From Pseudodesulfovibrio mercurii (GTDB taxonomy: Bacteria; Desulfobacterota; Desulfovibrionia; Desulfovibrionales; Desulfovibrionaceae), in contig NC_016803.1 in assembly GCF_000189295.2 (NCBI RefSeq), positions 1,290,001 through 1,322,000 on the forward strand: 32,000 nt of DNA. The letters are read 5' to 3'. The notes beneath the pieces are model-generated. The model was not told where the DNA came from. It saw nothing but the letters and a program-made list of their open reading frames with translations, and searched no databases. Position numbers and translations under genes: made by a program. Each line of letters starts with the position of its first letter. Positions within the stretch are counted from its first letter, which is position 1. This document shows, in pieces, positions 1 through 26,427 of the stretch.

Positions 1-701
1 AGGAGCTGTTCGGCCACGAAAAGGAGGCCTTCACCGGGGCCAACCGGGGCCAGAAGGGCATCCTGGAGGCGGCCGACGGGGGCACGGTATTTTTCGACGA
101 GATCGGCGAGCTGCCGCTGAACATGCAGGTCAAGCTGCTCAGGGTGTTGCAGGAGCGCAATTTCCTGCGCGTGGGCGGGACCAAGGAGATTCCGGTGGAC
201 ATCCGGGTCATTGCGGCCACCAACTGCGACCTGCACGAACTGGTGGAGCAGGGCGAGTTCCGCCAGGACCTCTACTACCGGCTGAACGTGGTCACCCTGC
301 ACGCCCCGCCCCTGCGCGAGCACCGCGAGGACATCCCCATCCTCATCGGCCACTTCCTGGAAAAGCACCGCCAGCCGGGCCAGACCATCAACGCCATCGA
401 CCAGGACACCCTGGACATCCTCATGTCCTACCCGTTCCCCGGCAACGTGCGCGAGCTGGAAAACATCGTCCAGCGGGCGCTGGCCCTGGGCCAGGGCACG
501 ACCTTCACGCCCGAGTTGCTGCCCGCCGAGATAGCGGCGACCGAGACCAAGGCCCCGCTGCCCACCCTGGAGGACATGGAGAAATCCTACATCAAGAAGG
601 TGTTGGCCTCATCGGCCGGGAACAAGACCCAGGCCGCGCGCATCCTGGGCATCGACCGCGTGTCCCTGTGGCGCAAGATCAAGCGCTACCACCTGGAATA
701 G
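1..701 (+). CDS. sigma54-dependent transcriptional activator (NtrC/Fis-family bEBP), 5'-truncated by the window edge
   Basis: Frame 3 is open from nt 3. Translation reads [13 protein letters not shown] (GAFTGA-type loop), [13 protein letters not shown] (Walker B), [16 protein letters not shown] and [11 protein letters not shown]. The C-terminus is a Fis-type HTH ([25 protein letters not shown]). Stop TAG at 699-701. Confidence 0.9.
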
Positions 702-705
702 CGCC

Positions 706-2805
706 CTACTGCGCGGCGTTCTCCGCCGCGCCGTCCGCAAGGTCCGCATTGTCCGCATCACACAGGGCGATGGCGGCGGCCTCCTCCATGGTCGTGACGT
801 AGCGGATGTCCAGCCCCTCGACCACCTCGTCCTCGATGGACCTGACCCCGGCCTCGCAGCCGCGCGGCAGGATGACCACGGGGATGCCCGCGCTCCGGGC
901 GGCCATGAGCTTTTCGCGCACCCCGCCCACGGGCAGGACCTCGCCCAGGAGCGACAGCTCGCCGGTGGAGGCCACGTCCTGGCGCACCGGCCGTCCGGTG
1001 AGCAGGGAGAGGAGCGCGATGGTGATGGCCACGCCTGCGGAGGGCCCCTCCTTGGAGACCGCGCCCGCCGGGATGTGCACGTGGATGTCCGAGGTGGCGT
1101 AGAACTCCGGGTCGATGCCGAAGGCGGCCGCGTGGCTGCGACAAAAGCTCAGGGCGGTCTGGGCCGACTCGCGCAGGACCTCGCCCAGGGAGCCGGTCAG
1201 GATGAGCTGCTTGGAGCCGCGCATGCGGGCCGCCTCCACGAAAATGATCTCGCCGCCGATCTCGGTCCAGACCAGGCTGGTGGCCAGCCCGACCTTGGGC
1301 CGCTTCTGGGCCGCGGTGGAGGTGAACGGCGGCGCGCCGAGCAGTTCCTGGAGCATGGCCCGGTCCACGGTGACCGCGCCCGCGCCCTCGGTCAGGACCC
1401 GCTTGGCCAGCTTGCGGCAGAGCGAGGCGATCTGCTGCCTGAGCCTGCGCAACCCCGACTCGCGGGCATAGCCCCGGATGAGCAGGTCCACGGTCTCGTC
1501 CGGGACGGTCACCAGCTTCTCGTCCAGGCCGTGCTGGGCCAGGACCTCGGGAATGAGGTAGCGGGTTGCAATCTGCAACTTCTCCCCCGGCGTGTAGCTG
1601 GGGAACTCGATGACCTCCAACCGGTCGCGCAACGGCGCGGGCAAACGCTCCACCCCGTTGGCCGTGCAGATGAACAGGGCTCCGGACAGGTCGAAGGGCA
1701 GCCCCAGGTAGTGGTCCACGAAGGCGGTGTTCTGCTCGGCGTCGAGCATCTCGAGCAGAACCGACGTGGCGTCGCCCTGGAAGTCCTGGACCGCCTTGTC
1801 CACCTCGTCGAGCATGATCACCGGGTTGCGGGTGCCGACCTTGCGCAGCCCCTGGATGATCCGGCCGGGCATGGCCCCGACGTAGGTCCGCCGGTGGCCG
1901 CGCAGCTCGGCCTCGTCGCGCAGTCCGGCCAGGGACAGGCGCATGAACTTGCGCCCCAACGCCTCGGCGATGGCCTTGCCGATGGAGGTCTTGCCCATGC
2001 CCGGAGGGCCCGTGAAGCAGAGCACGAACCCGCGCAGGTGCTGGGCGCGCAGGCTCTGCTCCCACAGCTCGGCCACGTACCGGCGCAGCTTGGTCAGGTT
2101 GACCGGCTTGCCCAGGTACTGGTCCGCGCCCCGGCGCATGGCGTCCACCGCGGTCTTCACCGTGGCGTAGCCGGTGATCATGATGACCTTGGTGTCGGGC
2201 CAGCGCCTGCGCAGGACCTGCAACAGCTCCATGCCGTCCATGCCCTCCATCTTCAGGTCCGAGACCACGATGTTGGCCGGTTCGCGCTCCATGGCGGCCA
2301 CGGCCTCGAGCCCGTTGCCCACGGCCTCCACGTCGTAGCCGTCGGCCTCGAACACGATGGTCAGGTTCTCGCGGGCGATGAGCTCATCATCCACCAAAAG
2401 GATGCGCGGATTGCGCCGAGCGCACAGGCTCTTGACCGCCAGGAACTCCAGGACCCGGTCCTTGACCCGTTGCAATCCGTAATGGCGGGCGTTCAGGACC
2501 TCCTCGGCCCTGGCGATGTCCAGGTTGTCGCGGGTGGCCGTGTTCCACGGCAGGGAGAGGATGACCTCGAGAAAATTGAGGCTGATGGCGTATTCGGGCG
2601 AGGCCGGGTCAACGCTGTCCATGCGGTCGCACTCGGCGCGGGCCGTATCCAGGATTTCCGGCGGCAGCCCGGCGGATTCCACCTGCTCGCGCAGGGAGTC
2701 GTGGGCCCGGACCGGGGCGGCGGCGGGCGGTGCGGAGGGAGTCTCCACCGCGACGGGCGCCGCTTCCCGAGGGGTGGAAGCCTTGCGTTTGCCGAACCAG
2801 CCCAT
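706..2805 (-). CDS. Lon-family ATP-dependent protease with an internal response-regulator receiver domain (REC-AAA+-Lon_C) and no LAN N-domain
   Basis: AGGAGG lies 8 nt upstream of the ATG at 2805. A Lon pre-ATPase helical segment is present (SLPWNTATRDNL..HYGLQRVKDRVLEFLAV). The REC domain covers about aa 134-248 (RILLVDDE, VVSDLKMEGMDG, IMITGY, YLGKP). AAA+ motifs are GPPGMGKTS, VIMLDEVDK and RGHRRTYVGAMPG. The protease domain has KEGPSAGVA (Ser) and GGVREKLMAA (Lys). Confidence 0.85.
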   Translation of the reverse strand: MGWFGKRKASTPREAAPVAVETPSAPPAAAPVRAHDSLREQVESAGLPPEILDTARAECDRMDSVDPASPEYAISLNFLEVILSLPWNTATRDNLDIARAEEVLNARHYGLQRVKDRVLEFLAVKSLCARRNPRILLVDDELIARENLTIVFEADGYDVEAVGNGLEAVAAMEREPANIVVSDLKMEGMDGMELLQVLRRRWPDTKVIMITGYATVKTAVDAMRRGADQYLGKPVNLTKLRRYVAELWEQSLRAQHLRGFVLCFTGPPGMGKTSIGKAIAEALGRKFMRLSLAGLRDEAELRGHRRTYVGAMPGRIIQGLRKVGTRNPVIMLDEVDKAVQDFQGDATSVLLEMLDAEQNTAFVDHYLGLPFDLSGALFICTANGVERLPAPLRDRLEVIEFPSYTPGEKLQIATRYLIPEVLAQHGLDEKLVTVPDETVDLLIRGYARESGLRRLRQQIASLCRKLAKRVLTEGAGAVTVDRAMLQELLGAPPFTSTAAQKRPKVGLATSLVWTEIGGEIIFVEAARMRGSKQLILTGSLGEVLRESAQTALSFCRSHAAAFGIDPEFYATSDIHVHIPAGAVSKEGPSAGVAITIALLSLLTGRPVRQDVASTGELSLLGEVLPVGGVREKLMAARSAGIPVVILPRGCEAGVRSIEDEVVEGLDIRYVTTMEEAAAIALCDADNADLADGAAENAAQ

Positions 2806-3122
2806 GACCGTTGCCTCCTGCTACCCGTTGAACGGAGAAACATCGCCTTTTCACAAGCGATGACGCCTTATTGGCCTATAATAGTTACCTATCACGCTAA
2901 CTTGAAGTTGTTAAGGTTGCAATAAGCAACATCGGCCCATTTTGCCCCACCCCGATCCGAACCAACTTTTTCCAGGAACCGCGCCGCCCGGTAAAAAGGG
3001 CTTAACTCCTTGGCATACCGCATTTTCACCCCACTCGATCCAGGCCCTTCCGAAAAGCCGTTTACCGGGGAAAAACCGCTTTTTTCGCCCGTGTCACCAC
3101 CGGGGCCACTTCAGCCGCGACA

Positions 3123-3219
3123 CCGTTGCATCCTGCATCACCGCCGGAAACCGCCGAATGGCGGCGTATAGCCATATTCCGGCTGGAAATCGGGGGGCGA
3201 CCGTTGCATTTGGCATCAC
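3123..3219 (+). promoter_or_regulatory. Pair of direct-repeat motifs CCGTTGCAT-N3-GCATCAC (3123-3141 and 3201-3219), candidate activator (UAS) binding sites
   Basis: Read directly from the sequence. The two 19-nt copies share 16/19 positions and start 78 nt apart. They lie about 170 and about 90 nt upstream of the sigma54-like element at 3292-3307. Confidence 0.3.
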
Positions 3220-3291
3220 ACTGAGTCCCCACACAGGGTCGTCTTTTTATTTAATCTATATTTTTCAACATGTTGCACTGGATATCGGACT

Positions 3292-3307
3292 TGGCATGTG
3301 TTTTGAT
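3292..3307 (+). promoter_or_regulatory. Candidate sigma54 (-24/-12) promoter TGGCATG-N4-TTGAT
   Basis: The sequence is TGGCATGTGTTTTGAT against the consensus TGGCACG-N4-TTGCW. The GG and TTG spacing is correct, but the -12 GC is replaced by GA. It lies upstream of the 3370/3511 ORF. Confidence 0.25.
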
Positions 3308-3510
3308 TCACAAGCCTGAACGCAGAGGTGAACAGGCAACCTCCAAACCTAAAAGCTAGGAGTTGAGACATGGCCCTCTTCAATGCAGTCAAGCAAGTTG
3401 TGGACAGGCATTATGCGGCGCAGGCCGCGGCAAACTGCAACACGTGCAGTGTGGGCACGTGGGTCGTCTGCCATGAAAATCATTTATTGGAGAAATCGGG
3501 AGGCTCTTCG

Positions 3511-3981
3511 ATGAAGGCATTTTTCAAGCGAATCACCGGCACCCGCCGCCAACCCGTCACCACCGCTCCGACTGTCGCGGCGGCTGCCGCCGCCGACTGC
3601 GGCTGCCGCGAGAAGCAGCAGTGCAAAATCCTCATCGTCTGCAAGGGCCAGGAGTTCTCCCGGGGCATCGCCGACTACGCCGTGGACATGGCCTGCAAGA
3701 CCCGCAGCTCCCTGGTGGCCCTGAACATCGACGAGTCCGGCAGGGACTTCGCCGGGTTCCGCAGCCAGGCCGAACGCAACATCGAATACTTCAACAAGAA
3801 GGCGGCCGACGCGGGCCTGACCTTCCGTCACGAGATCCAGCAGGGGGACGAGAACGCCATCGTCGCCCGGATGCACGAAACCGATCCGAGCTTCCGTTAC
3901 GTCATGGACGACTCCGCAGCCGTCTGCAAGAACAGGAGCAGCATTCCCGTGTACACCCGAGCCACGTTGCGGGCGAGATAA
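3511..3981 (+). CDS. Hypothetical protein, weakly universal-stress-protein-like fold; alternative upstream start at 3370
   Basis: GGGAGG lies 7 nt upstream of the ATG at 3511. GC3 rises sharply from 3511 onward. The product has a KILIVCKG..ALNIDES..IVARMHE alpha/beta-like pattern without a clear ATP-binding motif. It sits 45 nt upstream of the SLC13 permease on the same strand. Confidence 0.55.
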   Translation: MKAFFKRITGTRRQPVTTAPTVAAAAAADCGCREKQQCKILIVCKGQEFSRGIADYAVDMACKTRSSLVALNIDESGRDFAGFRSQAERNIEYFNKKAADAGLTFRHEIQQGDENAIVARMHETDPSFRYVMDDSAAVCKNRSSIPVYTRATLRAR

Positions 3982-4026: not shown

Positions 4027-5826
4027 ATGACCCCGGAAATCATAACGGTTCTGGCCGTTCTCGTATTCGCCGTACTTCTCTTCATCTTCGAATGGGTCCG
4101 GGTGGACGTGGTCGGCATCATCATGATGGTGCTCCTGCCCCTGCTTGGCCTGGTCACGCCGCAACAGGCCATCAGCGGACTGAGCAGCAACGCCGTCGTC
4201 TCCATCATCGCGGTCATCATCATCGGCGCCGGGCTGGACAAGACCGGCGTCATGAACTCCATGGCCCGCGTCATCCTGCGCTTCGCGGGCAAGAGCGAAT
4301 CGCGGATCATGACGCTCATCGCGGGCACGGTGGCCCTCATCTCCGGCTTCATGCAGAACATCGGGGCGGCCGCCCTGTTCCTGCCTGCGGCCAAGCGCAT
4401 CGGCAACCAGACCGGCGTGCCGGTGGGGCGGCTGCTCATGCCCATGGGCTTCTGCGCCATCATCGGCGGCTGCCTGACCCTGGTCGGCTCCAGCCCGCTC
4501 ATCCTGCTCAACGACCTGATGGTCGTGGGCGGCAAGAAGTACGAGGCCTTCGGCCTGTTCAGCGTGACCCCCGTGGGCCTGCTGCTCGTGGCCGCCGCGC
4601 TGCTCTACTTCATCCTGCTCGGGCGGTTCATCCTGCCCAACCGGTCCGAGGACGAAAGCTCCGGCCCCATGTCCTCCATCCTGACCGGGACCTACAACAA
4701 CGTCGGCTCCCTGTTCGAGCTGGCAGTGCCCGCCGACTGGAGGAACGACGCCCCGCTCAAGGCCCTGGACCTGCGACCCATCTACTTCTGCACCCTGGTG
4801 GCCATCTGCCGCGAGAACGGCAAGCAGCACATCTTCGCGCCCCTGCCCGACGAGATCATCCGGCCGGGCGACCAGATCGTGGTCGTGGGCCCGCAGGAGT
4901 TCGTGGAGCACCTGGCCGAGGACCTCGGCTGGGAACTGCGGCCGGAACTGACCACCTTTGCCGAGGAACTCTCCCCCAACAACGCGGGCATCATGGAGGG
5001 CATCGTCACCCCCCGGTCCGAGTTCATGGGCAAGACCATCGCCGAACTACGCATCCGGGAACGATTCCAGGTCTCTCCCCTGGCCATCTTCCGGGGCGAA
5101 AAGATCTTCGTCAGCGGGCTTTCGGACATCATCATCGAGTCCGGCGACGCCCTGCTCCTGCACGGACGGTGGGAGATGTTCCACATGCTCAAGGGGCTGC
5201 CCGACCTGGTCTTCACCGAGACCGTCAAGGGCGAGCTGCTGCGCACGGACAAGGCCAAGATCGCGCTGATGTGGCTGGCCGTGTCCCTGGTCATGATCCT
5301 GGGCTTCCACGTCCAGCTGTCCATCGCGCTCCTGACCGGCGCCCTGGGCATGGTCCTGACCAAGGTCCTGACCATCGACGAGGCCTACCAGTCCGTGGAC
5401 TGGATGACCGTGTTCCTGCTCGGCGGGCTCATTCCCCTGGGCATGGCCTTCGAGAACACGGGCGCGGCCAAGTTCATCGCGGACACCATCATGGCGGCCC
5501 TGGGCACGCCGTCCGCCCTGGTCCTGCTGGCGGTCATCGGCGTGCTGACCTCCTTCTTCACCCTGGTGGCCTCCAACGTGGGTGCCACGGTCCTGCTCGT
5601 CCCGCTGTCCATGAACATGGCCCTCAATGCGGGCGTGGACCCCAGGGTGGCCGCCCTGACCGTGGCCGTGGCCGCGTCCAACACCTTCGTTCTGCCCACC
5701 CATCAGGTCAACGCGCTGATCATGCGCCCGGGCGGGTACCGCACCATCGATTACGTCAAGAGCGGGGCCGGGATGACCGTGCTTTACATGGTTGTCATGT
5801 TGTCCGCCTTGATGCTATTCTACTGA
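4027..5826 (+). CDS. SLC13/DASS-family anion permease with two central TrkA-C (RCK_C) domains
   Basis: 599 aa. N- and C-terminal polytopic membrane halves (LSSNAVVSIIAVIIIGAGLDKTGVMN; ASNVGATVLLVPL..ASNTFVLPTHQVNALI) flank two soluble repeats (..IRPGDQIVVVGPQE.. and ..IESGDALLLHGRWE..), which is typical of RCK_C. Confidence 0.88.
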   Translation: MTPEIITVLAVLVFAVLLFIFEWVRVDVVGIIMMVLLPLLGLVTPQQAISGLSSNAVVSIIAVIIIGAGLDKTGVMNSMARVILRFAGKSESRIMTLIAGTVALISGFMQNIGAAALFLPAAKRIGNQTGVPVGRLLMPMGFCAIIGGCLTLVGSSPLILLNDLMVVGGKKYEAFGLFSVTPVGLLLVAAALLYFILLGRFILPNRSEDESSGPMSSILTGTYNNVGSLFELAVPADWRNDAPLKALDLRPIYFCTLVAICRENGKQHIFAPLPDEIIRPGDQIVVVGPQEFVEHLAEDLGWELRPELTTFAEELSPNNAGIMEGIVTPRSEFMGKTIAELRIRERFQVSPLAIFRGEKIFVSGLSDIIIESGDALLLHGRWEMFHMLKGLPDLVFTETVKGELLRTDKAKIALMWLAVSLVMILGFHVQLSIALLTGALGMVLTKVLTIDEAYQSVDWMTVFLLGGLIPLGMAFENTGAAKFIADTIMAALGTPSALVLLAVIGVLTSFFTLVASNVGATVLLVPLSMNMALNAGVDPRVAALTVAVAASNTFVLPTHQVNALIMRPGGYRTIDYVKSGAGMTVLYMVVMLSALMLFY

Positions 5827-5869: not shown

Positions 5870-6009
5870 GGCAAATGAGGACCAGGCCCCCTGTAACCTA
5901 TAGCCCGCAAAGGATTTTTTCATCGACATTACGCCTCGGCCAGGAAGGACGACTGTCCATCCATCACGGCCGCCCGGGGCGTTTTTGCCGTATTGAAGGA
6001 GAGAAACGA

Positions 6010-7632
6010 ATGAAGACACCGTTGTCGAAGACCTTTGTCGAAACATTCCTCGGGAACGCGCCCGGATGGTACAAACTGACCATCATCGCCTTTCTCGTGC
6101 TCAACCCCGTGCTCATGCTCACGGTAGGCCCGTTCATCGCCGGATGGGCGCTCATCGCCGAGTTCATCTTCACCCTGGCCATGGCGCTCAAATGCTACCC
6201 GCTGCCGGCGGGCGGCCTGCTCGCCCTGGAAGCCGTGATCATGGGCATGACCTCCCCGGAGACCGTGTATCATGAAGCCCTGAAGAACTTCGAAGTCATC
6301 CTGCTCCTGATCTTCATGGTCGCGGGCATCTACTTCATGAAGGACTTCCTCCAGTTCACCTTTACCCGCATCCTGGTGCGCGTGCGCTCCAAGAAGGTCA
6401 TCGCCCTGCTGTTCTGCCTGGCCGGCGCGTTCCTGTCCGCCTTCCTGGACGCCCTGACCGTGACCGCGGTCATCATGGCCGTGGCCTTCGGTTTCTACAA
6501 CATTTACCACCGGTTCGTGTCCGGCAAGGGCGCGGGGGACACCCACGACCTGATCGACGACGACGGCGTCAAGGACACCAGCCGCGAAGAGCTGCTCCAG
6601 TTCCGGGGCTTTCTGCGCAACCTGATGATGCACGGCGCCGTGGGCACCGCGCTCGGCGGCGTGTGCACCCTGGTGGGCGAGCCGCAGAACCTGCTGGTGG
6701 GCGGCGAGATGGGCTGGCACTTCGTGCCCTTCTTCCTGCATGCCGCGCCCGTGACCATGCCGGTCCTGGCCATGGGCCTGCTGACCTGCCTCGCCGTGGA
6801 GCAGTTCCACATCTTCGGCTACGGCTACCAGCTGCCCGGCAACATCCGCTCCTTCCTGCTGGAGACCGCCGTGCAGATGGAGGTAAAGCAGGGCGCCAAG
6901 GGCAAGCTCAAGCTGGTCCTCCAGGCCTGCACCGGCATCTGGCTGATCCTGGCCCTGGCCTTCCACCTGGCCGCGGTCGGCCTCATCGGCCTGTCGGTCA
7001 TCATCCTGCTGACCGCCTTCACCGGCATCACCGAGGAGCATCAGCTGGGCCACGCCTTTGAGGAGGCCCTGCCGTTCACCGCCCTGCTTGTGGTCTTCTT
7101 CTCCGTGGTCGCGGTCATCCACTCCCAGGAGCTGTTCACCCCGATCATCGAATTCGTCCTCAGCCTGAAGGGACAGAACCAGCTGGTGGCCTACTTCGTC
7201 GCCAACGGCCTGCTCTCCTCCATCTCCGACAACGTCTTCGTGGCCACGGTCTACATCTCCGAGACCAAGCTGCACTTCATCAACGTGCTGGGCGCCATCC
7301 CGGACATCGGCATGACCGGGCAGGCCCTGATGGAAAAGATGACCGATCCGCACCTGGCGCGGGCCGACGTGCTGGCCACCCTGCCGCAGAACGCGGCGGC
7401 CCTGGTCAAGGAGACCATGGAGCACTTCGACAAGCTGGCCGTGGCCATCAACACCGGGACCAACATCCCGTCCGTGGCCACCCCCAACGGCCAGGCGGCC
7501 TTCCTGTTCCTGCTGACCTCGGCGCTCGCCCCGGTCATCCGTCTCTCCTACGGAAGAATGGTCTGGCTGGCGCTGCCGTACACCATCACCATGTCCCTGA
7601 CCGGACTGATGGCCGTGTACGTCTTCCTCTAG
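6010..7632 (+). CDS. nhaB: Na+/H+ antiporter NhaB
   Basis: GGAGAG RBS upstream of the ATG at 6010. The N-terminus ([82 protein letters not shown]) is near-colinear with my recollection of E. coli NhaB. The ORF-track start at 5875 is rejected. Confidence 0.9.
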
Positions 7633-7717: not shown

Positions 7718-8422
7718 TCAGGGCTGGGTGGCCAGGATGCGCTCGCGGAGACGGTCGAGACGGTCGCTGGTCTGGAGGCGGAAGATGTCGCCGATGGCCC
7801 AGATGGTCGCCAAGGCGGTGGATGCCGCGTCGGCACGGACGGCCGTGTAGTCCTCCCGGACCTGATCGATGGTCGCGCCCACGAACTGCTGGACCTTGTC
7901 GATCTTGGCGTGCACGTGGCCGATGGCCTTGTTCAGGGAGTCGCGGCCGTCGCCGGTCAGGCTCTCCAGGACCAGGAAGGCGGAGAAGAGATTGTAGAAG
8001 AGATGGTCCAGGTCGGACTCGTAGTTCCAGTAGTCCCAGGCCCAGCGCAGCCTGCCGAACCGGGCGCAGCCCGAAGCCGCGATGATGACCAGCATCATCT
8101 CCACCAGGGCGTCGTCGGCCCGACGCCGGGAGGTCACCCGGCAGCGGTCGTTGTGGATGGCGGTCATCTCGACCATGTCGATGGACTTGGTGTTCACGAA
8201 GTAGCGGCACAGCTCGAAGATATTCAGGACCGCGCGACAGGTCCCGGTCTCCCGGCCCTCGGCGTCCACCTCGCGACAGCGGTCGCAGTGGTAGGCCGTG
8301 CGGCGGCAGACGAAGTCCGCCGCAGGCTTCCTGCCCCGGAATTCCACGGTCAGGCGGGCGATGTCGGCCTGGACCTCCAGTTGCTCGATGCCGTCCAGGG
8401 TGACGAGAAACGTGAACTTCAT
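7718..8422 (-). CDS. Hypothetical cysteine-rich protein (234 aa), likely co-transcribed with mgsA
   Basis: A long ORF with host-like codon bias that starts 25 nt downstream of the mgsA stop on the same strand. The N-terminal half carries FVCRR, HCDRC, GTCRAV, ELCRY and DRCRV. The C-terminal half looks helical. I recognise no family. Confidence 0.6.
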   Translation of the reverse strand: MKFTFLVTLDGIEQLEVQADIARLTVEFRGRKPAADFVCRRTAYHCDRCREVDAEGRETGTCRAVLNIFELCRYFVNTKSIDMVEMTAIHNDRCRVTSRRRADDALVEMMLVIIAASGCARFGRLRWAWDYWNYESDLDHLFYNLFSAFLVLESLTGDGRDSLNKAIGHVHAKIDKVQQFVGATIDQVREDYTAVRADAASTALATIWAIGDIFRLQTSDRLDRLRERILATQP

Positions 8423-8447: not shown

Positions 8448-8912
8448 TTACTTCAGGGCCCGATCGGCGTACTCGAAATAGCGCCCCGGCTTGATGCAGA
8501 ATTCGTGGTCGAAATAGGCCGAGGAGATCAGGAACTCGGCCGAGGAGCGGTTGCTGGCCGTGGGGATGTTGTAGAGCACGGCCAGGCGCAGCAGGGCCTT
8601 GACGTCCACGTCGTGGGGCTGCGGCTCCATGGGGTCCCAGAAGAAGATGAGCACGTCCACCTTGCCGTCGCTGATCATGGCCCCGAGCTGCTGGTCGCCG
8701 CCCAGGGGGCCTGACTTGAGGCGCTGGACGCGCTTGGGCTCCTGTCCCCGGGCAACGCCCTCGGCCAGCAGGGACTCCACCAGCCGCCCGGTGGTCCCGG
8801 TGGCGATGAGGTTGTGCGGGATCATGGCCTCGCGGTTGCAGGCGATGAAGTCGAGCAGTTCTTCCTTGCAGTTGTCGTGGGCGACCACCGCGATGTTCTT
8901 GATCCTGTCCAT
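8448..8912 (-). CDS. mgsA: Methylglyoxal synthase
   Basis: GGAGG lies 4 nt upstream of the ATG at 8912. Product motifs are MDRIKNIAVVAHDNCK, LIATGTTG, SGPLGGDQQLGA, DVLIFFWDP, HDVDVKALLRLA and NIPTA, matching conserved MgsA motifs. The start at 8975 is rejected. Confidence 0.9.
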   Translation of the reverse strand: MDRIKNIAVVAHDNCKEELLDFIACNREAMIPHNLIATGTTGRLVESLLAEGVARGQEPKRVQRLKSGPLGGDQQLGAMISDGKVDVLIFFWDPMEPQPHDVDVKALLRLAVLYNIPTASNRSSAEFLISSAYFDHEFCIKPGRYFEYADRALK

Positions 8913-9040
8913 GACGCCTCCGGGCGTGGTCTCGGGGCCGCGACGGGCCGTCGGCCCCCAGGGGTTTCCTACCACCTGCGGGGGGCCGCGACAAGCCGGG
9001 CCGGACCGTGCGACCCAGCTCCGAAATTCGCCTGCCCGCC

Positions 9041-21650: not shown

Positions 21651-22673
21651 TCAGCCCCGCTCTTTCATCAATTGCATAAGGTGCCCACGCAAGCACGCCG
21701 CGTGGCTGCGCAGGGAATATTTCCCCCAGGCCTCGGCGTGGGCGGCCATGCCGACCTTCCGGCGCAGCTCCGGCTCCAGGACGAGCCGGGTGACGATCCG
21801 CTCGAAGTCGTCGACCGTGTTCGCGAAAAAGCCGGTCTCGCCGTCCCGGACCACGAGTCTCTCGGCGGCGGTGGGATGGATGACGGCGGGCAGCCCGGCG
21901 GCCATGTAGCTCAGGACCTTGTTCGGATCCTTGAGGTGTTGCAGGTTGGACGTGTCCCGCCAGCGAAAGGCGATGTCGGCCAAGAGCATCTCCCTGGGCC
22001 AGGTGGCGTTGTCGAAGGTTCGGTATTCGATCCAGTCGTGCTCGCCCGTCCGGTTCGTGTCGTAGACCACCCTGCAGCCGAACCTGTCCTTCATGCGGCG
22101 CAGGACGGGCAGGATGGCGTTGTTCTGCGGCTGGTTCAGCGAGACGCCGGTCCAGTACAGGACGACCCCGCGCGTGGCGTCGGTCGCCTCCTTGAAGTGA
22201 AATTCATTGTCGTCGTTGTAGATCTGCCTCGGCAGCTCAAGGGGACGCATGCCCGCCCTGCGCACCACCTCCCCCAAGAGCGGGGTGGCGATGAGACAGC
22301 CGTCCAGCAGCGCGAACCGTTTCGCGGCCCTTCGCTCGGTGGACAGGTAATACAGTTTTTTCGCGTACCGGCGCAGCCGGTTCTCCTCGTAGACCGACGG
22401 GTAGAGGAAGGTGTCCTGGTAATCCAGGAGCATGATCTTGCCCGCCCGCTTCAGCGCCTTCAGCACATCCAGCTCGGGGATGTATTTGATGAAGATCAGG
22501 ACGTCGAAGCCCATCAGCTCATCGAGGTCGAAGGGTTCCCACCGGAAATAGCCGCACTCGACCCCGCCCGCGCGGAGGAGTTCCCCGGCCACCTTGACCC
22601 CGGATTGCGTAAAGGAATTGGCGTCGGTGCGCGGACCGAACCCAACCTTGAAAACGGACTTGTCGTCAGGCAT
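21651..22673 (-). CDS. Divergent glycosyltransferase-like protein (only the C-terminal GT-B half is recognisable)
   Basis: LSYMAAGLPAVIHPTAAERLVVRDGETGFFANTVDDFERIV resembles the GT1 nucleotide-sugar-binding half. I recognise no N-terminal half. It is translationally overlapped (8 nt) with the upstream GT4. Confidence 0.55.
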   Translation of the reverse strand: MPDDKSVFKVGFGPRTDANSFTQSGVKVAGELLRAGGVECGYFRWEPFDLDELMGFDVLIFIKYIPELDVLKALKRAGKIMLLDYQDTFLYPSVYEENRLRRYAKKLYYLSTERRAAKRFALLDGCLIATPLLGEVVRRAGMRPLELPRQIYNDDNEFHFKEATDATRGVVLYWTGVSLNQPQNNAILPVLRRMKDRFGCRVVYDTNRTGEHDWIEYRTFDNATWPREMLLADIAFRWRDTSNLQHLKDPNKVLSYMAAGLPAVIHPTAAERLVVRDGETGFFANTVDDFERIVTRLVLEPELRRKVGMAAHAEAWGKYSLRSHAACLRGHLMQLMKERG

Positions 22674-23910
22674 GGGATTCCTTCTTCGTGATTTCCCGGT
22701 CCACGGCCTCGTGCATCCGCCCGACCACCGCGTCCCAGGAGTAGCGGGACAGGGCCAGTTCGCGCCCTTCCGCGCCCAGACGACGCCGGGCGTCCTCGTC
22801 GTCCATCAGTTCCAGGCAGCGCCGGGCAAAGGGTGCGGCCTCGTCCTCGATGCGCAGGTGGCGGCCGTCCTCGCAGAGGATGCCCTCGCAGCCGAGCGCG
22901 GTGGAGAGCACGGCCTTGCCCATGGCGAAGGCCTCCAGGATCTTGAGCCGGGTCCCGCCGCCGAAGCGCAGGGGCACGACCACCACCGAGGCCTCGCGGA
23001 CAAAGGGGCGCACGTCGTCCACCGTGCCGGTGACGACCACCCCGGCCGCCGGGTCGTGCAACGCCTGAACGTCCGGGTGGGGGCTGCGCCCCACGATGGT
23101 GATGCGGGCTCCGGGCCGGGCGGCCCGGATGGCGGGCAGGATGTCGCGGACGAACCACTTCATGCCGTCGATGTTCGGCAGCCAGTCCATGGACCCGACG
23201 AAGACCAGATTGTCCGCCCGTCCGGGGGCATCGGCGGGATCGTCGGCCGGGGTGTAGAAATTCACGTCCACGCCGTTTTCCACCAGGACGCCCTTGCCCT
23301 GTCCGGCCAGGGCGTCTATCTGGCCGCCGTCCTCGCCGGACACGGCCAGGACCATGCCCGCCTCGCGGAAGGCCCGCGTCTCGAAACGGCGCATGTTCCG
23401 GGCGTGCAGTCCCAGGGCCAGGCGACGCGGCAGGGAACGCTCCAGGTCGCGCATGCGTTCCGCGATCTGGTACTCCACGTTGTGGGCGTTCAGGGTCGTG
23501 AAGGGCGCGCCGCCCCCGTTGCCCAGGCCGCCCAGGCCGCCCGCCAGGTGGATGGTGTCCACGTGCACCAGGTCGTAGTTCGGGGCGAGTTCCCGGAACC
23601 GGGCCGCGAAGTCCGCCTTCGCGTACTTGACGGTCGAGACCGGCAGCCCCCTGATCAGGGCGGCCAGCAGGTCCGACGGCGCGGCGGGCCGGTTGAGATC
23701 GGGATTCTCCATGCCGAAAATCTCCCGCACGCCCAGGGCTGCCGCCGCTTTGCGCCAACCGGCCTCCACCGCGGGGTCGATGAAATGCAGCACGTCCACG
23801 TCATAGCGGTCCACGAACCCGGAAAGGATGTTCCACGTCCGGATCTTGGCCCCGGTATCCAGCGGATACGGCGGACGGGCCGTGGCGAACAGCACGCTTC
23901 CCCTGCTCAT
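22666..23910 (-). CDS. Family-4 (GT1-fold) glycosyltransferase
   Basis: MSRGSVLFATARPPYPLDTGAKIRTWNIL, then VVVVPLRFGGGTRLKILEAFAMGKAVLSTALGCEGI. The ATG at 23910 overlaps the upstream stop (ATGA). The start at 24000 is rejected. Confidence 0.85.
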   Translation of the reverse strand: MSRGSVLFATARPPYPLDTGAKIRTWNILSGFVDRYDVDVLHFIDPAVEAGWRKAAAALGVREIFGMENPDLNRPAAPSDLLAALIRGLPVSTVKYAKADFAARFRELAPNYDLVHVDTIHLAGGLGGLGNGGGAPFTTLNAHNVEYQIAERMRDLERSLPRRLALGLHARNMRRFETRAFREAGMVLAVSGEDGGQIDALAGQGKGVLVENGVDVNFYTPADDPADAPGRADNLVFVGSMDWLPNIDGMKWFVRDILPAIRAARPGARITIVGRSPHPDVQALHDPAAGVVVTGTVDDVRPFVREASVVVVPLRFGGGTRLKILEAFAMGKAVLSTALGCEGILCEDGRHLRIEDEAAPFARRCLELMDDEDARRRLGAEGRELALSRYSWDAVVGRMHEAVDREITKKESHA

Positions 23911-25049
23911 GCGCCCGCCCTCTCCATGACTTCGCGCATGGCGTCCGCGATGCGCCGCACGCAGGATTCCGGGTTGAAGCGGTCCCTGTCCACCAGGCAC
24001 CGCCCGCGCATGGCGCGCAGCCTGTCCGGGGCGTCCAGCAACCCCTCCACCGACTCGACGAGCGTGGGCACGTCGTTTCGCTTCATGACGATGCCGGTCT
24101 CGCCGTGGGTGACGATCTCGGGGATGCCCATGGAGTCCGAGACCACGGCGGGCAGCCCGCAGGCCTGGGCCTCCTTGAGGACGTTGGGGTAGGCGTCGTG
24201 CCGGGCGGGATGGAGGATGAGCGAGGCGGAGAGGTACTCCTCCATGAGCGTCCCGAAGGGCACCAGGCCCAGGTGGCGCGCCCCCTCCGGCAGGGGTTTG
24301 TCCGCAGCCACGCCCACCAGCACCAGTTCAAGTCCGGGCCGGCGGCGGCGAAGCTCGGTGAAGGCCTCGAAGACCAGATCCCCGCCCTTGCGGTGGAACT
24401 CCGTGGCCGCGAAGAGCAGCTTTTCCTTGCGGTCGGCCAGGACCCGGTCCGCGTCCGGGTAGGGAATCTTGCACGCGGTGGGGGCCACCATGACCCGTTC
24501 CGGCGGCAGGCCGTAGTCATCGATCATGGACCGGCGGGTGCACTCGCTGTAGGTGAAGACCAAATCCTTGGCCTGCATGGAGGCCCTTTCGAGTTCGTAG
24601 AACCGCTCCCTGATCCGGGGGAAATGCCTGGGCATCCAGTCGGGCCAGACCCGCTCGACCATGGCCACGTTCTGGTCGTGGTAGGAGAAATGGACCATGC
24701 CCGGCGCCTTGACCGGGCCGAAGAGGCAGCCCACCTGGAAGGTCGCGCCGATCCCGGCGGTGCGGTCCAGGGCCTTCTGGAAACGCCGGGTCCTGGCGCC
24801 GAACGCCGACGGGGTCTTGGCGGCCCACTCCAGCTGGCGGTGGTACTCCCGGCGCAGGTCCATGGGCCGGGCCAGGAGCGCCTTGGCCAGGCAGGCGCAA
24901 CCGATCCGCTTCTTCACGAAGGGGGTGTCCGCGTTGACCATGGCCACGTCGAAGGACTTCGCCAATCCGGCGTACAGCCAGTTCTTGCTGGTCCCGGCCT
25001 GGAGGTTCGGGCTGGCCCACTGGTCAAGGATGAACAGCGGCGACTTCAC
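23907..25049 (-). CDS. GT1/GT4-like glycosyltransferase with an atypical N-terminal half
   Basis: C-terminal LILHPARHDAYPNVLKEAQACGLPAVVSDSMGIPEIVTHGETGIV. 380 aa. Confidence 0.75.
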   Translation of the reverse strand: MKSPLFILDQWASPNLQAGTSKNWLYAGLAKSFDVAMVNADTPFVKKRIGCACLAKALLARPMDLRREYHRQLEWAAKTPSAFGARTRRFQKALDRTAGIGATFQVGCLFGPVKAPGMVHFSYHDQNVAMVERVWPDWMPRHFPRIRERFYELERASMQAKDLVFTYSECTRRSMIDDYGLPPERVMVAPTACKIPYPDADRVLADRKEKLLFAATEFHRKGGDLVFEAFTELRRRRPGLELVLVGVAADKPLPEGARHLGLVPFGTLMEEYLSASLILHPARHDAYPNVLKEAQACGLPAVVSDSMGIPEIVTHGETGIVMKRNDVPTLVESVEGLLDAPDRLRAMRGRCLVDRDRFNPESCVRRIADAMREVMERAGA

Positions 25050-25104
25050 GACAATTCCTCCCCGCTCCCCGGCGACATCCGCGTTCCGGCGCTTCGGCGA
25101 GGGC

Positions 25105-26427
25105 TCATTTCGGCTTCCTCATGGTGTACCGCCTTCTTCCGGCAAGGGGGGCATTCTCCGGCAGGTCCGGGGTTTCCGACGGGACCGGGGCTTCCCGGAC
25201 CGGGACTTCCGCTACCGGGACTTCCACCGGGAAGGGGCTCTCCATGGTCAGGACCCGCTCACGGATCATGGCGATGCTCAAGACGAAATAGAGGACGATG
25301 TGGTAGCCCCAGGAGAGGAACATGCCTCCGGCCATGAAGCCTATCAGAGCCAATCTGATCCCCCGCCCGAGCCAATCGTTCTCGTCCGTGGGCTTGGCCC
25401 GCTTGTACGCGGAAAAGAGCATGCCCATGAACACGATGAAACCGGGGATGCCCAGTTCGACGCCCACCTGAATAAAGGAATTGTGCGCCTCGCTCCAACG
25501 GCCGCCGGAGTTGACCTGTCCTTCCGCCACCCGGAAGGTATCGACGCCGGTGCCCAGTATCGGATTCCGCTTGAACAGGGTCCACCCGTTCTCCCAGATA
25601 TCCATCCGGCCCCCCTTGGACGTCATGTTGTAATCGCTTTCCAGGGTGAAGACGGAACTGAACCGGGCCAGATCCTCGGCGGGGGCGAGCGCCATGATGA
25701 CCGCCAGGGCCAGGGCGCCCAACAGGCCGATCCGGACCATCCCCTTGAACCCCTTGGAGAACCCCCAGGCCGCCACGGTGACGAGGGCCGCCACCAGGCC
25801 GCCCCTGGACTGGGTCAGGACCACGGCGCCTACGCCGATGACGGTGAGCAGGTACAGTCCCCACTTGTACATCGGCTTGACGAACTTGGCGGACGGCAGG
25901 ATGAGGGCGAGCCCCATGATGAAAAAGAGCGCGGTGTCGTTGGGATCGTAGGACCAGTTCGCCGCGACCCTGTTCCCCTCGACGTACCTCGGGGCGACGA
26001 AGCAGATCACCCCCATGACGAACAGGGTCAGCGCTATCCCGCCCAGGCTGTACCGGAAATCGTCCCGCTGGTTCACCTGGCAGTTGAGCGCCAGCAGAAC
26101 GACACAGAAATACATGCAGAATTCCTTGAAGAAGGAAAGCGAATGGGATGGATAGATGCCCGTGAAGATGCTGACGAACATGATCGCCAGCATGGCGGCG
26201 AACCAGCGGAAGGTCATGGAGCGCCAGAACAATGCCAGCCGAGGCTTGGCCAGGCCCTGGTGCGACACAATCGCCAGCATGAGCACGATGGACATGACCA
26301 GGACCAGGCGCAGGGGCCACAGTACGCGAAAGACCTCCTGGACCCGTCCGAGCAGGATGAGCGGCATGGCCATCAGCAGCCAGTCCATAAAACGTGGCCG
26401 CCTTACGGGGCCGAACGCCTGATTCAT
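25105..26427 (-). CDS. wzy: O-antigen ligase/polymerase family membrane protein (Wzy-like)
   Basis: 440 aa starting MNQAFGP (the ATG at 26427 overlaps the upstream stop as ATGA). Multiple TM spans, LTQSRGGLVAAL, a periplasmic loop with GTGVDTF..SEAHNSFIQVGVELGIPGF (Wzy_C-like), and a Pro/Glu/Val-rich C-terminal tail. The 811-aa ORF-track model is an artefactual 5' extension. Confidence 0.85.
   Translation of the reverse strand: MNQAFGPVRRPRFMDWLLMAMPLILLGRVQEVFRVLWPLRLVLVMSIVLMLAIVSHQGLAKPRLALFWRSMTFRWFAAMLAIMFVSIFTGIYPSHSLSFFKEFCMYFCVVLLALNCQVNQRDDFRYSLGGIALTLFVMGVICFVAPRYVEGNRVAANWSYDPNDTALFFIMGLALILPSAKFVKPMYKWGLYLLTVIGVGAVVLTQSRGGLVAALVTVAAWGFSKGFKGMVRIGLLGALALAVIMALAPAEDLARFSSVFTLESDYNMTSKGGRMDIWENGWTLFKRNPILGTGVDTFRVAEGQVNSGGRWSEAHNSFIQVGVELGIPGFIVFMGMLFSAYKRAKPTDENDWLGRGIRLALIGFMAGGMFLSWGYHIVLYFVLSIAMIRERVLTMESPFPVEVPVAEVPVREAPVPSETPDLPENAPLAGRRRYTMRKPK

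Follow-up and report, generated by a model that had tools for sequence, protein, structure and literature searches.

Why would a two-component receiver sit inside the motor of an ATP-dependent protease, and from which partner would it take its signal? This question is raised by a gene of Pseudodesulfovibrio mercurii that we followed up in a window of 32,000 nucleotides (assembly GCF_000189295.2, contig NC_016803.1, positions 1,290,001 to 1,322,000; positions below are counted within this window). An earlier note, made from the sequence alone, had described the product as a Lon protease with a receiver (REC) in front of its AAA+ module and no substrate-recognition N-domain, and had suggested proteolysis gated directly by two-component phosphorylation. 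We call the protein REC-Lon. We find that the gene is very probably a DVU3303-type member of a three-component system, named after its counterpart in Desulfovibrio vulgaris Hildenborough (DvH), and that REC-Lon is probably the proteolytic response regulator of a branched system that is orthologous in context to DVU3303-DVU3304-DVU3305. The protein is most reasonably read as a protease gated by two-component phosphorylation. The architecture, the three-component context and the gating idea are not new, all having appeared in print in 2011; genetic support followed in 2023. What is added here is the insertion topology (alpha0/REC/beta1, joined by 3-residue linkers, the spacing being fixed at 189 residues), the extent of the family, and the paralogy of its receiver with that of the partner activator.

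The gene is a single unbroken open reading frame (ORF) of 699 aa that begins at the furthest-upstream possible start codon, with a Shine-Dalgarno sequence, AGGAGG at 2819-2814, 8 nt ahead of the ATG. A Pfam scan of the 699 residues, the check that the earlier note had proposed, called Response_reg, AAA, Lon_lid and Lon_C and gave no match to LON_substr_bdg (PF02190), as that note had expected. The Response_reg match (PF00072) covers aa 135-244 with an E value of 1.6e-27 and spans profile positions 1-110 of 111; at 2074-2403 it lies essentially where the receiver had been placed by eye (nt ~2062-2406). We aligned the protein with E. coli Lon (6u5z) by phmmer and found that residues 35-127 correspond to Lon 251-343, which bears out the colinearity seen from the helical segment onwards, and that residues 253-683 correspond to Lon 343-773. 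Because these two stretches meet at 343, the receiver is a clean insertion at about Lon residue 343, and Lon 1-250 are absent. The Ala/Pro-rich N-terminus said to replace the N-domain is also there, with 9 Ala and 6 Pro in the first 36 residues.

Family models for LonA (MEROPS S16) give a divided picture. The endopeptidase La model TIGR00763 ('lon') scores 669.2 bits against a cutoff of 608.05, in two stretches; the stricter NF008053 (PRK10787) scores 528.4 against 891, and the LonB model TIGR00764 reaches 87 bits, versus 669 for TIGR00763. Judged by its sequence, REC-Lon clearly appears to be LonA-derived. The active-site residues that the earlier note had named in the receiver, the Walker motifs and the protease could all be located. 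In the receiver these are VDDE at 138-141, with the acidic pocket D139/D140, D183 in VVSDLKM, T211 in IMITGY, and K233 in YLGKP; the receiver also has the aromatic switch residue Y230. The AAA+ module has Walker B (LDEVDK, 332-337), pore-loop residues Y308-V309 and the Arg finger R395. There was no Pfam match to Sigma54_activat in the Lon protein. The NCBIfam matches of the receiver include the receivers of CpdR and RssB.

We then modeled the monomer with AlphaFold2 (AF2) from a 58-sequence alignment (mean predicted local distance difference test score [pLDDT] 80, predicted template modeling score 0.66). Residues 1-31 have a pLDDT below 50 and are predicted to be disordered. The Lon segment that follows is predicted to form helices at 36-44, 49-63, 70-84, 97-107 and 112-130, the last of which (HYGLQRVKDRVLEFLAV) is the AAA+ helix alpha0 and closes the segment. 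The receiver (134-257) is modeled with the canonical fold of five strands alternating with five helices, and after it comes a low-confidence three-residue hinge (257-259). The AAA+ strand beta1 (261-265) runs directly into the P-loop (266-273). Thus, both connections of the receiver, from alpha0 to its own beta1 and from its alpha5 to the AAA+ beta1, are predicted to be about 3 residues long. A Foldseek search of the PDB returned only conventional LonA chains, with a TM-score (normalized by target length) of up to 0.89; every alignment contained a gap of about 125 columns, and no solved structure with a receiver insertion was found.

This geometry is conserved. From the LPW motif to the GKT of Walker A there are exactly 189 aa in each of the 18 aligned members, the most distant of which is 54% identical, and the corresponding 567 nt are kept in nearly all of the best 80 genome loci. 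D139, D140, D183, T211, Y230, Walker A and B, Y308, R395, S589 and K632 are invariant both in this 18-sequence alignment and in the 58-sequence alignment, which reaches down to 53% identity; K233 is invariant in the 18 and at least 90% conserved in the 58, and V309 is at least 90% conserved. These alignments agree with the earlier description of the receiver, Walker and protease residues as intact. As a separate observation, the extreme tip M-x-(F/W)-F-x-K (aa 1-6, 2788-2805) is kept in an otherwise variable, disordered N-terminus, and F4 is at least 90% conserved across the 58 sequences. This tip could be a degron or a targeting motif.

The family is widespread. The best 120 protein clusters (54-93% identity) have the same Pfam domain set, bar two truncated entries of 468 and 402 aa, and their hosts include Pseudodesulfovibrio, Maridesulfovibrio, Salidesulfovibrio, Paucidesulfovibrio, Desulfoplanes, Syntrophobacterales and Desulfobaccales. 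We also scanned a genome collection by alignment of the segment holding the junction and the receiver; at least 588 relatives were confirmed, and the best 80 loci were examined. At each of them the match takes in essentially all 189 residues of the segment, with 9-189 covered at one locus on a contig end, and the loci come from Desulfovibrionales, Desulfobulbales, Desulfobacterales, Syntrophobacterales, Desulfobaccales, Desulfomonilaceae, Desulfarculales and Nitrospirota/Thermodesulfovibrionales. REC-Lon is thus carried by at least 80 species genomes in Thermodesulfobacteriota and Nitrospirota, and the closest among the matches listed is from Desulfovibrio caledoniensis lm2024, at 95%. In an exhaustive search of 50%-identity representatives, one-stretch matches containing the receiver were confined to one full-length protein (P0121) and three fragments. 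REC-Lon is a compact, single-origin family. We rejected P0122-P0137 as further REC-Lon architectures, since Pfam shows them to be tandem-AAA Lons with no receiver. Their architectures are unusual in their own right: several of these Lon relatives, 889-1379 aa long (one has 3865 aa), carry two or three tandem AAA+/Lon_lid modules followed by a single Lon_C, with neither a receiver nor an N-domain, and P0129 combines a single AAA module with two Lon_C domains.

Next to REC-Lon lies the end of a gene for a sigma54 enhancer-binding protein (EBP) of the response regulator type, which is cut by the window edge. At 98% identity, the fragment matches residues 212-443 of the EBP in L001, a syntenic metagenomic locus whose Lon is 91% identical to the one studied here. 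In L001, the 443-aa REC-Sigma54-HTH_8 activator is preceded by a 477-aa HAMP-HisKA-HATPase_c histidine kinase (HK). A kinase of this type lies directly upstream of the EBP in L001/L007, L003 and L005, and, beyond L001, the trio of REC-Lon, kinase and EBP is found in Maridesulfovibrio hydrothermalis and in a distant deltaproteobacterial metagenome-assembled genome. Since the EBP fragment matches residues 212-443 of the L001 activator and the kinase is upstream of it there, the kinase gene of P. mercurii should lie about 0.6-2.1 kb to the left of the window. The earlier note had stated that the window holds no cognate kinase. This was correct as far as it went, for there is none among the 21 window ORFs scanned by Pfam (21.7-22.6 and 24.2-26.4 kb lay outside the scan). 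However, the kinase is not missing from syntenic loci such as L001; the window has none because its edge falls inside the EBP gene of the HK-EBP operon.

To measure linkage we counted partners in the 45 genome loci that have at least 4.5 kb on both sides of REC-Lon. The activator was present in 31 loci, the kinase in 36, both in 30, and the small protein encoded on the other side of REC-Lon in the window in 27. The kinase, the EBP and REC-Lon occur in four different relative arrangements. That both partners are found in 30 of the 45 loci and in four arrangements indicates that the linkage is conserved despite rearrangement. Within the window, the EBP and REC-Lon genes converge, with 4 nt between their stop codons (701-706), and no terminator-like hairpin was found between them; transcription from the two sides would collide.

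We asked how the two receivers of this locus are related. The receiver of REC-Lon is 43-54% identical to that of the adjacent EBP, and it scores 92-106 bits against partner EBPs, versus 75 bits on the same scale for the best receiver in the PDB. The likeness extends through alpha1 (IARENL) into the extended alpha5. No solved receiver comes as near to that of REC-Lon as the partner activator's does, and the receivers of REC-Lon and the activator are paralogous.

Candidate EBP sites lie in the intergenic region between REC-Lon and the divergent operon. We searched the window for the motif GTTGCA-N4-GCAACA, the ortholog-based DVU3305 motif in Table S9 of PMC3333781; that table gives GTTGCAAAAAGCAACA as an example and lists a site at -122 of D. 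salexigens Desal_0384, a 'response regulator receiver protein'. There were 11 matches against 1.84 expected, clustered in 2806-3442, and 0 of 100 shuffles reached 11. Across eight orthologous intergenic regions, the conserved islands are three palindromes, a TTGGCA...TTGAT element and a TTAACA/TGnTA pair. The TTGGCA and TTGAT blocks are invariant in all eight, and this sigma54-like element would drive the divergent operon of the Usp-like protein, the transporter and NhaB. Its -12 element is TTGAT and not the usual TTGC, and this form is the one kept from Pseudodesulfovibrio to Maridesulfovibrio. On the minus strand of 2806-3369, no sigma54 promoter was found ahead of REC-Lon within 2 mismatches. 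The TTAACA/TGnTA pair looks like a sigma70-type promoter of REC-Lon; a sigma70 consensus scan called nothing ahead of the gene, this pair included. No Rfam family reached the gathering threshold across the window, the 564-nt intergenic region included. One further palindrome with one mismatch, GTTGCAGATTGCAACC at 1564-1580, lies inside the REC-Lon codons for ..EKLQIAT.. and may be due to chance, may follow from conservation of the peptide, or may be a binding site within the gene.

These features can be set against the DvH system. Rajeev et al. 2011 (PMC3333781) described DVU3303-DVU3304-DVU3305 as a three-component system with a Lon-protease response regulator and already proposed that phosphorylation gates the Lon. 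They reported a DVU3305 peak by DNA-affinity-purified-chip (DAP-chip) between DVU3301 and DVU3303, listed orthologous pairs in other Desulfovibrio, Desulfomicrobium, Thermodesulfovibrio, Thioalkalivibrio and Dechloromonas, and remarked on UspA-type domains. Kazakov et al. 2015 (PMC4641369) gave DVU3302-3298 as a sigma54-dependent target and marked DVU3303-3305 as having no sigma54 promoter. In Trotter et al. 2023 (PMC10102598), the three genes DVU3303:DVU3305 have a pairwise cofitness of >0.9 and impair growth in chlorate, where the target that probably matters is the anion transporter DVU3299. Like DVU3303 (annotated as a truncated form of the ATP-dependent protease La), REC-Lon joins a receiver and Lon in one polypeptide and has a HAMP kinase and a sigma54 REC-EBP as neighbors. 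In both loci the divergent operon combines Usp-like genes with genes for membrane transport and has a sigma54 promoter, which in the window is a sigma54-like element; the intergenic region that it shares with the Lon gene contains GTTGCA-N4-GCAACA sites, and the Lon gene itself has no sigma54 promoter. Thus, with a sigma54-like element on the divergent side only, the promoter asymmetry of the window matches that of DvH. The two differ in that REC-Lon is monocistronic here and converges with the HK-EBP operon, whereas its DvH counterpart opens a Lon-HK-EBP operon, and in that the divergent operon here includes NhaB. DvH also encodes a canonical Lon, DVU1337, adjoining ClpX, so its receiver-Lon is an accessory paralog.

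Comparison with other AAA+ proteins shows what is particular to this design. REC-Lon is about 50% identical to canonical LonA (E. coli Lon, B. subtilis LonA, Meiothermus LonA and human LONP1) over the AAA+ and protease domains and keeps Walker A and B, the pore-loop Tyr, the Arg finger, the lid and the Ser-Lys dyad. Unlike canonical LonA, it is missing E. coli residues 1-250, which hold the LAN/LON_substr_bdg domain and most of the long helix, and in its AAA+ fold a receiver of about 125 aa separates alpha0 from beta1. LonB and LonC likewise have no LAN N-domain and carry an extra element in the AAA+ region; in LonB, however, this is a transmembrane hairpin between Walker A and B, and LonC has a degenerate ATPase, whereas the element in REC-Lon is a soluble receiver before beta1. 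In placement, the receiver resembles that of the NtrC1, DctD and NtrC regulators, where a receiver stands immediately N-terminal to the AAA+ beta1 and Walker A and is joined via an extended alpha5. In sequence, too, the receiver is nearest those of the NtrC family (AtoC, NtrX, NtrC1, DctD and FleR), above all that of the partner EBP. Unlike these regulators, REC-Lon has a Lon-clade AAA+ module with no GAFTGA loop and no sigma54 interaction, its output is proteolysis and not transcription, and its alpha0 precedes the receiver instead of following it. With the ClpXP adaptors RssB and CpdR it shares the principle that the timing of the degradation of specific proteins by an AAA+ protease is set by a phosphorylatable receiver. 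However, these adaptors are separate polypeptides that act on ClpX, whereas the receiver of REC-Lon is covalently within the protease's own ATPase.

Taken as a pathway, a membrane HAMP histidine kinase would phosphorylate two receivers, the phosphotransfer being presumed. One receiver would be that of the sigma54 activator, which may bind the GTTGCA-N4-GCAACA sites in 2806-3369 and switch on the operon of the Usp-like protein, the anion transporter and NhaB. The other would be the receiver inside Lon that bears Asp183, and this arm would add a proteolytic output. Phosphorylation may move the alpha4-beta5-alpha5 face, from which the signal could pass through alpha5 and beta1 to the P-loop or the subunit interface. 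It is because the linkers are 3 residues long and beta1 leads straight into the Walker A loop that we propose a change in hexamer assembly and/or ATPase activity; such a change would turn on a Lon that has no substrate-binding N-domain. The logic resembles the control of AAA+ rings by receivers in proteins of the NtrC1/DctD type. We lean slightly toward the view that phosphorylation directly gates proteolysis. The more specific proposal, that phosphorylation of Asp183 directly switches the Lon motor on via hexamer assembly or ATPase activity through a rigid alpha5-beta1 link, stands at about an even chance.

Several points weigh against this reading. About one-third of the well-flanked loci have no HK/EBP within 6 kb. 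Orthology to DVU3303 rests on gene context and on the ortholog list of PMC3333781. The cofitness in DvH may be a polar effect, since DVU3303 comes first in the DVU3303-3305 operon. The direction of regulation, activation, is one that we infer by analogy. We compared receiver identities between REC-Lon and EBP within and across genomes (L052 and L060 excluded) and found no usable signal of lineage-specific co-variation: identity was 0.473 within genomes versus 0.461 across them, and a nearest-neighbor control gave 16 up and 16 down. We do not claim co-evolution of the two receivers. Finally, literature searches for a named or characterized receiver-Lon returned nothing beyond the DvH papers, and no phosphotransfer, ATPase, oligomerization, proteolysis or structure data turned up for any member of the family. 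The earlier note's remark that no Lon of this architecture had been characterized thus holds for biochemistry and structure, but the architecture itself was described in 2011 (PMC3333781), and the cofitness followed in 2023 (PMC10102598).

What else could the receiver be for? It might be a built-in adaptor or substrate-docking module: the Lon ring would be constitutively assembled and active, and the phosphorylated receiver, placed where an N-domain would otherwise be, would recruit one or a few specific substrates, such as the EBP, the Usp-like protein or a transporter domain, by the logic of RssB and CpdR for ClpXP. The substrate-binding N-domain is gone with nothing else in its place, the receiver is the sole extra module, CpdR and RssB receivers are among its NCBIfam matches, and the small Usp-like protein is co-encoded in 27 of the 45 loci. 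Rigid 3-residue linkers and a fixed insertion length, however, look more like allosteric coupling than flexible docking, and we regard this alternative as unlikely; it is also compatible with direct gating of the motor, the two not being mutually exclusive. A further alternative is that REC-Lon shapes the signaling itself by negative feedback, as a phosphate sink that competes with the EBP and/or by degrading the EBP or the kinase. The presence of two receivers so closely related beside a single kinase would suit such a role, as would an EBP site that abuts the putative REC-Lon promoter with no sigma54 element, an arrangement compatible with autoregulation. Disruption of the DvH system improves growth in chlorate, yet the proposed target DVU3299 is needed for growth (PMC10102598), and simple activation fits this poorly. 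A complete ATPase and protease would be an expensive phosphate sink, and the cofitness of >0.9, of the same sign for Lon, HK and EBP (PMC10102598), argues against a Lon that antagonizes the EBP, unless it is polar. We hold this second alternative to be decidedly improbable.

The receiver could also be a relic, a pseudo-receiver that substitutes for the N-domain in hexamer stability while phosphorylation plays no role. Lon constructs without the N-domain need help to hexamerize, as LonA truncation studies have shown, and this speaks for such a role. However, in the 58 sequences, the most distant at 53% identity, D139, D140, D183, T211, Y230 and K233 are each invariant or kept in at least 90%, and the gene stays linked to a kinase, so that we consider a relic very improbable. 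The earlier note had allowed that the fusion might be an assembly or frameshift artefact. This we give practically no credence and treat as ruled out: the ORF is unbroken and has a Shine-Dalgarno sequence, and the same architecture recurs in the top 120 clusters and in 80 independent genomes, complete chromosomes included (e.g., CP195092.1, NZ_CP104854.1 and NZ_CP050700.1). Among these explanations, direct gating by phosphorylation remains the one we prefer.

Table 1. Coordinates of REC-Lon, its domains and the neighboring genes and DNA elements in the 32,000-nt window.
Feature	Position (nt)	Strand	Evidence or remark
Sigma54 enhancer-binding response regulator (DVU3305-type EBP), C-terminal 232 aa, cut by window edge	3..701	+	Pfam Sigma54_activat, AAA_lid_14, HTH_8
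REC-Lon gene, LonA-type protease with inserted receiver	706..2805	-	ORF, Pfam, NCBIfam, same-architecture homologs at 54-93% identity
Lon_C protease domain, aa 480-681	763..1368	-	PF05362, E 1.9e-70
Catalytic dyad Ser589 and Lys632	1039-1041 (Ser589); 910-912 (Lys632)	-	positions match E. coli S679/K722
Lon AAA+ lid, aa 424-474	1384..1536	-	PF22667, E 3.8e-16
AAA+ large subdomain, aa 262-400	1606..2022	-	Pfam AAA
Walker A GPPGMGKT, aa 266-273	1987-2010	-	motif
Inserted receiver, aa 134-257, (beta-alpha)5, 21-residue alpha5	2035..2406	-	Pfam PF00072, AF2
Asp183 codon, predicted phosphorylation site	2257..2259	-	motif, conservation
Lon helical segment, aa 36-130, ~ E. coli Lon 251-343	2416..2700	-	alignment to 6u5z and 3m6a, AF2 helices
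Disordered Ala/Pro-rich N-terminus, aa 1-35, in place of Lon N-domain	2701..2805	-	pLDDT, composition
TTAACA and TGnTA, abutting the Lon-proximal palindrome	2914-2909 and 2894-2890	-	conservation only
Perfect EBP palindrome GTTGCAATAAGCAACA	2916..2931		window motif search; 111-126 nt upstream of REC-Lon ATG
One-mismatch EBP palindrome GTTGCATCCTGCATCA	3125..3140		~165 nt upstream of sigma54-like promoter
One-mismatch EBP palindrome GTTGCATTTGGCATCA	3203..3218		~85 nt upstream of sigma54-like promoter
Sigma54-type promoter-like element TGGCATGTGTTTTGAT	3292..3307	+	ends 63 nt before ATG at 3370; 2 mismatches, not significant alone
203-aa small protein, weakly Usp-like, first gene of divergent operon	3370..3981	+	Usp matches of orthologs
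CitMHS/TrkA_C anion transporter, putative DVU3299-type target	4027..5826	+	Pfam; synteny in L001 and L003
NhaB-type Na+/H+ antiporter, third gene of divergent operon	5875..7632	+	Pfam NhaB, E 7e-220; synteny

The first gene of the divergent operon encodes the 203-aa small protein counted above, which is a candidate partner or substrate of REC-Lon because it lies beside REC-Lon in 27 of the 45 loci. No Pfam family was matched by the copy in the window, and orthologs gave Usp matches below threshold (E 0.016 and 0.0007), in agreement with the UspA-type domains remarked on in PMC3333781. Its N-terminal part contains CNTC...C-H, a possible metal site; the weak likeness to Usp in the orthologs is in the C-terminal part. 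Beyond the operon, a DUF6901 protein (7718-8422) and a protein with an MGS-like domain (8448-8975) are encoded between the NhaB gene and a gene for a ferritin-like protein. The DUF6901 gene may be specific to this genome, since there is no called gene at the L001 counterpart (5.1-5.2 kb). Further along, 21700-26420 lies within a polysaccharide-biosynthesis cluster (glycosyltransferases, a flippase and a GH123-like gene) and contains many long overlapping ORFs on both strands. A gene caller based on GC content at third codon positions (GC3) placed only one ORF in it, at 22594-24192 (+), encoding 532 aa with no Pfam match and an unusually high first-position GC.

Control of Lon proteolysis is normally exerted through the N-domain, degrons or adaptors. 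If the proposal is true, a Lon under the direct control of a two-component signal would give a stress pathway a compact posttranslational output branch; the DvH literature ties this pathway to ion, pH and oxyanion stress. It would also be the first demonstrated response regulator with an ATP-dependent protease as its output domain, and a natural AAA+ protease gated by a domain beside the P-loop and not by an N-domain or an adaptor. Members of the family occur widely among sulfate reducers, other Thermodesulfobacteriota and Nitrospirota, and their unusually rigid, conserved geometry makes them a tractable target for structure-function work.

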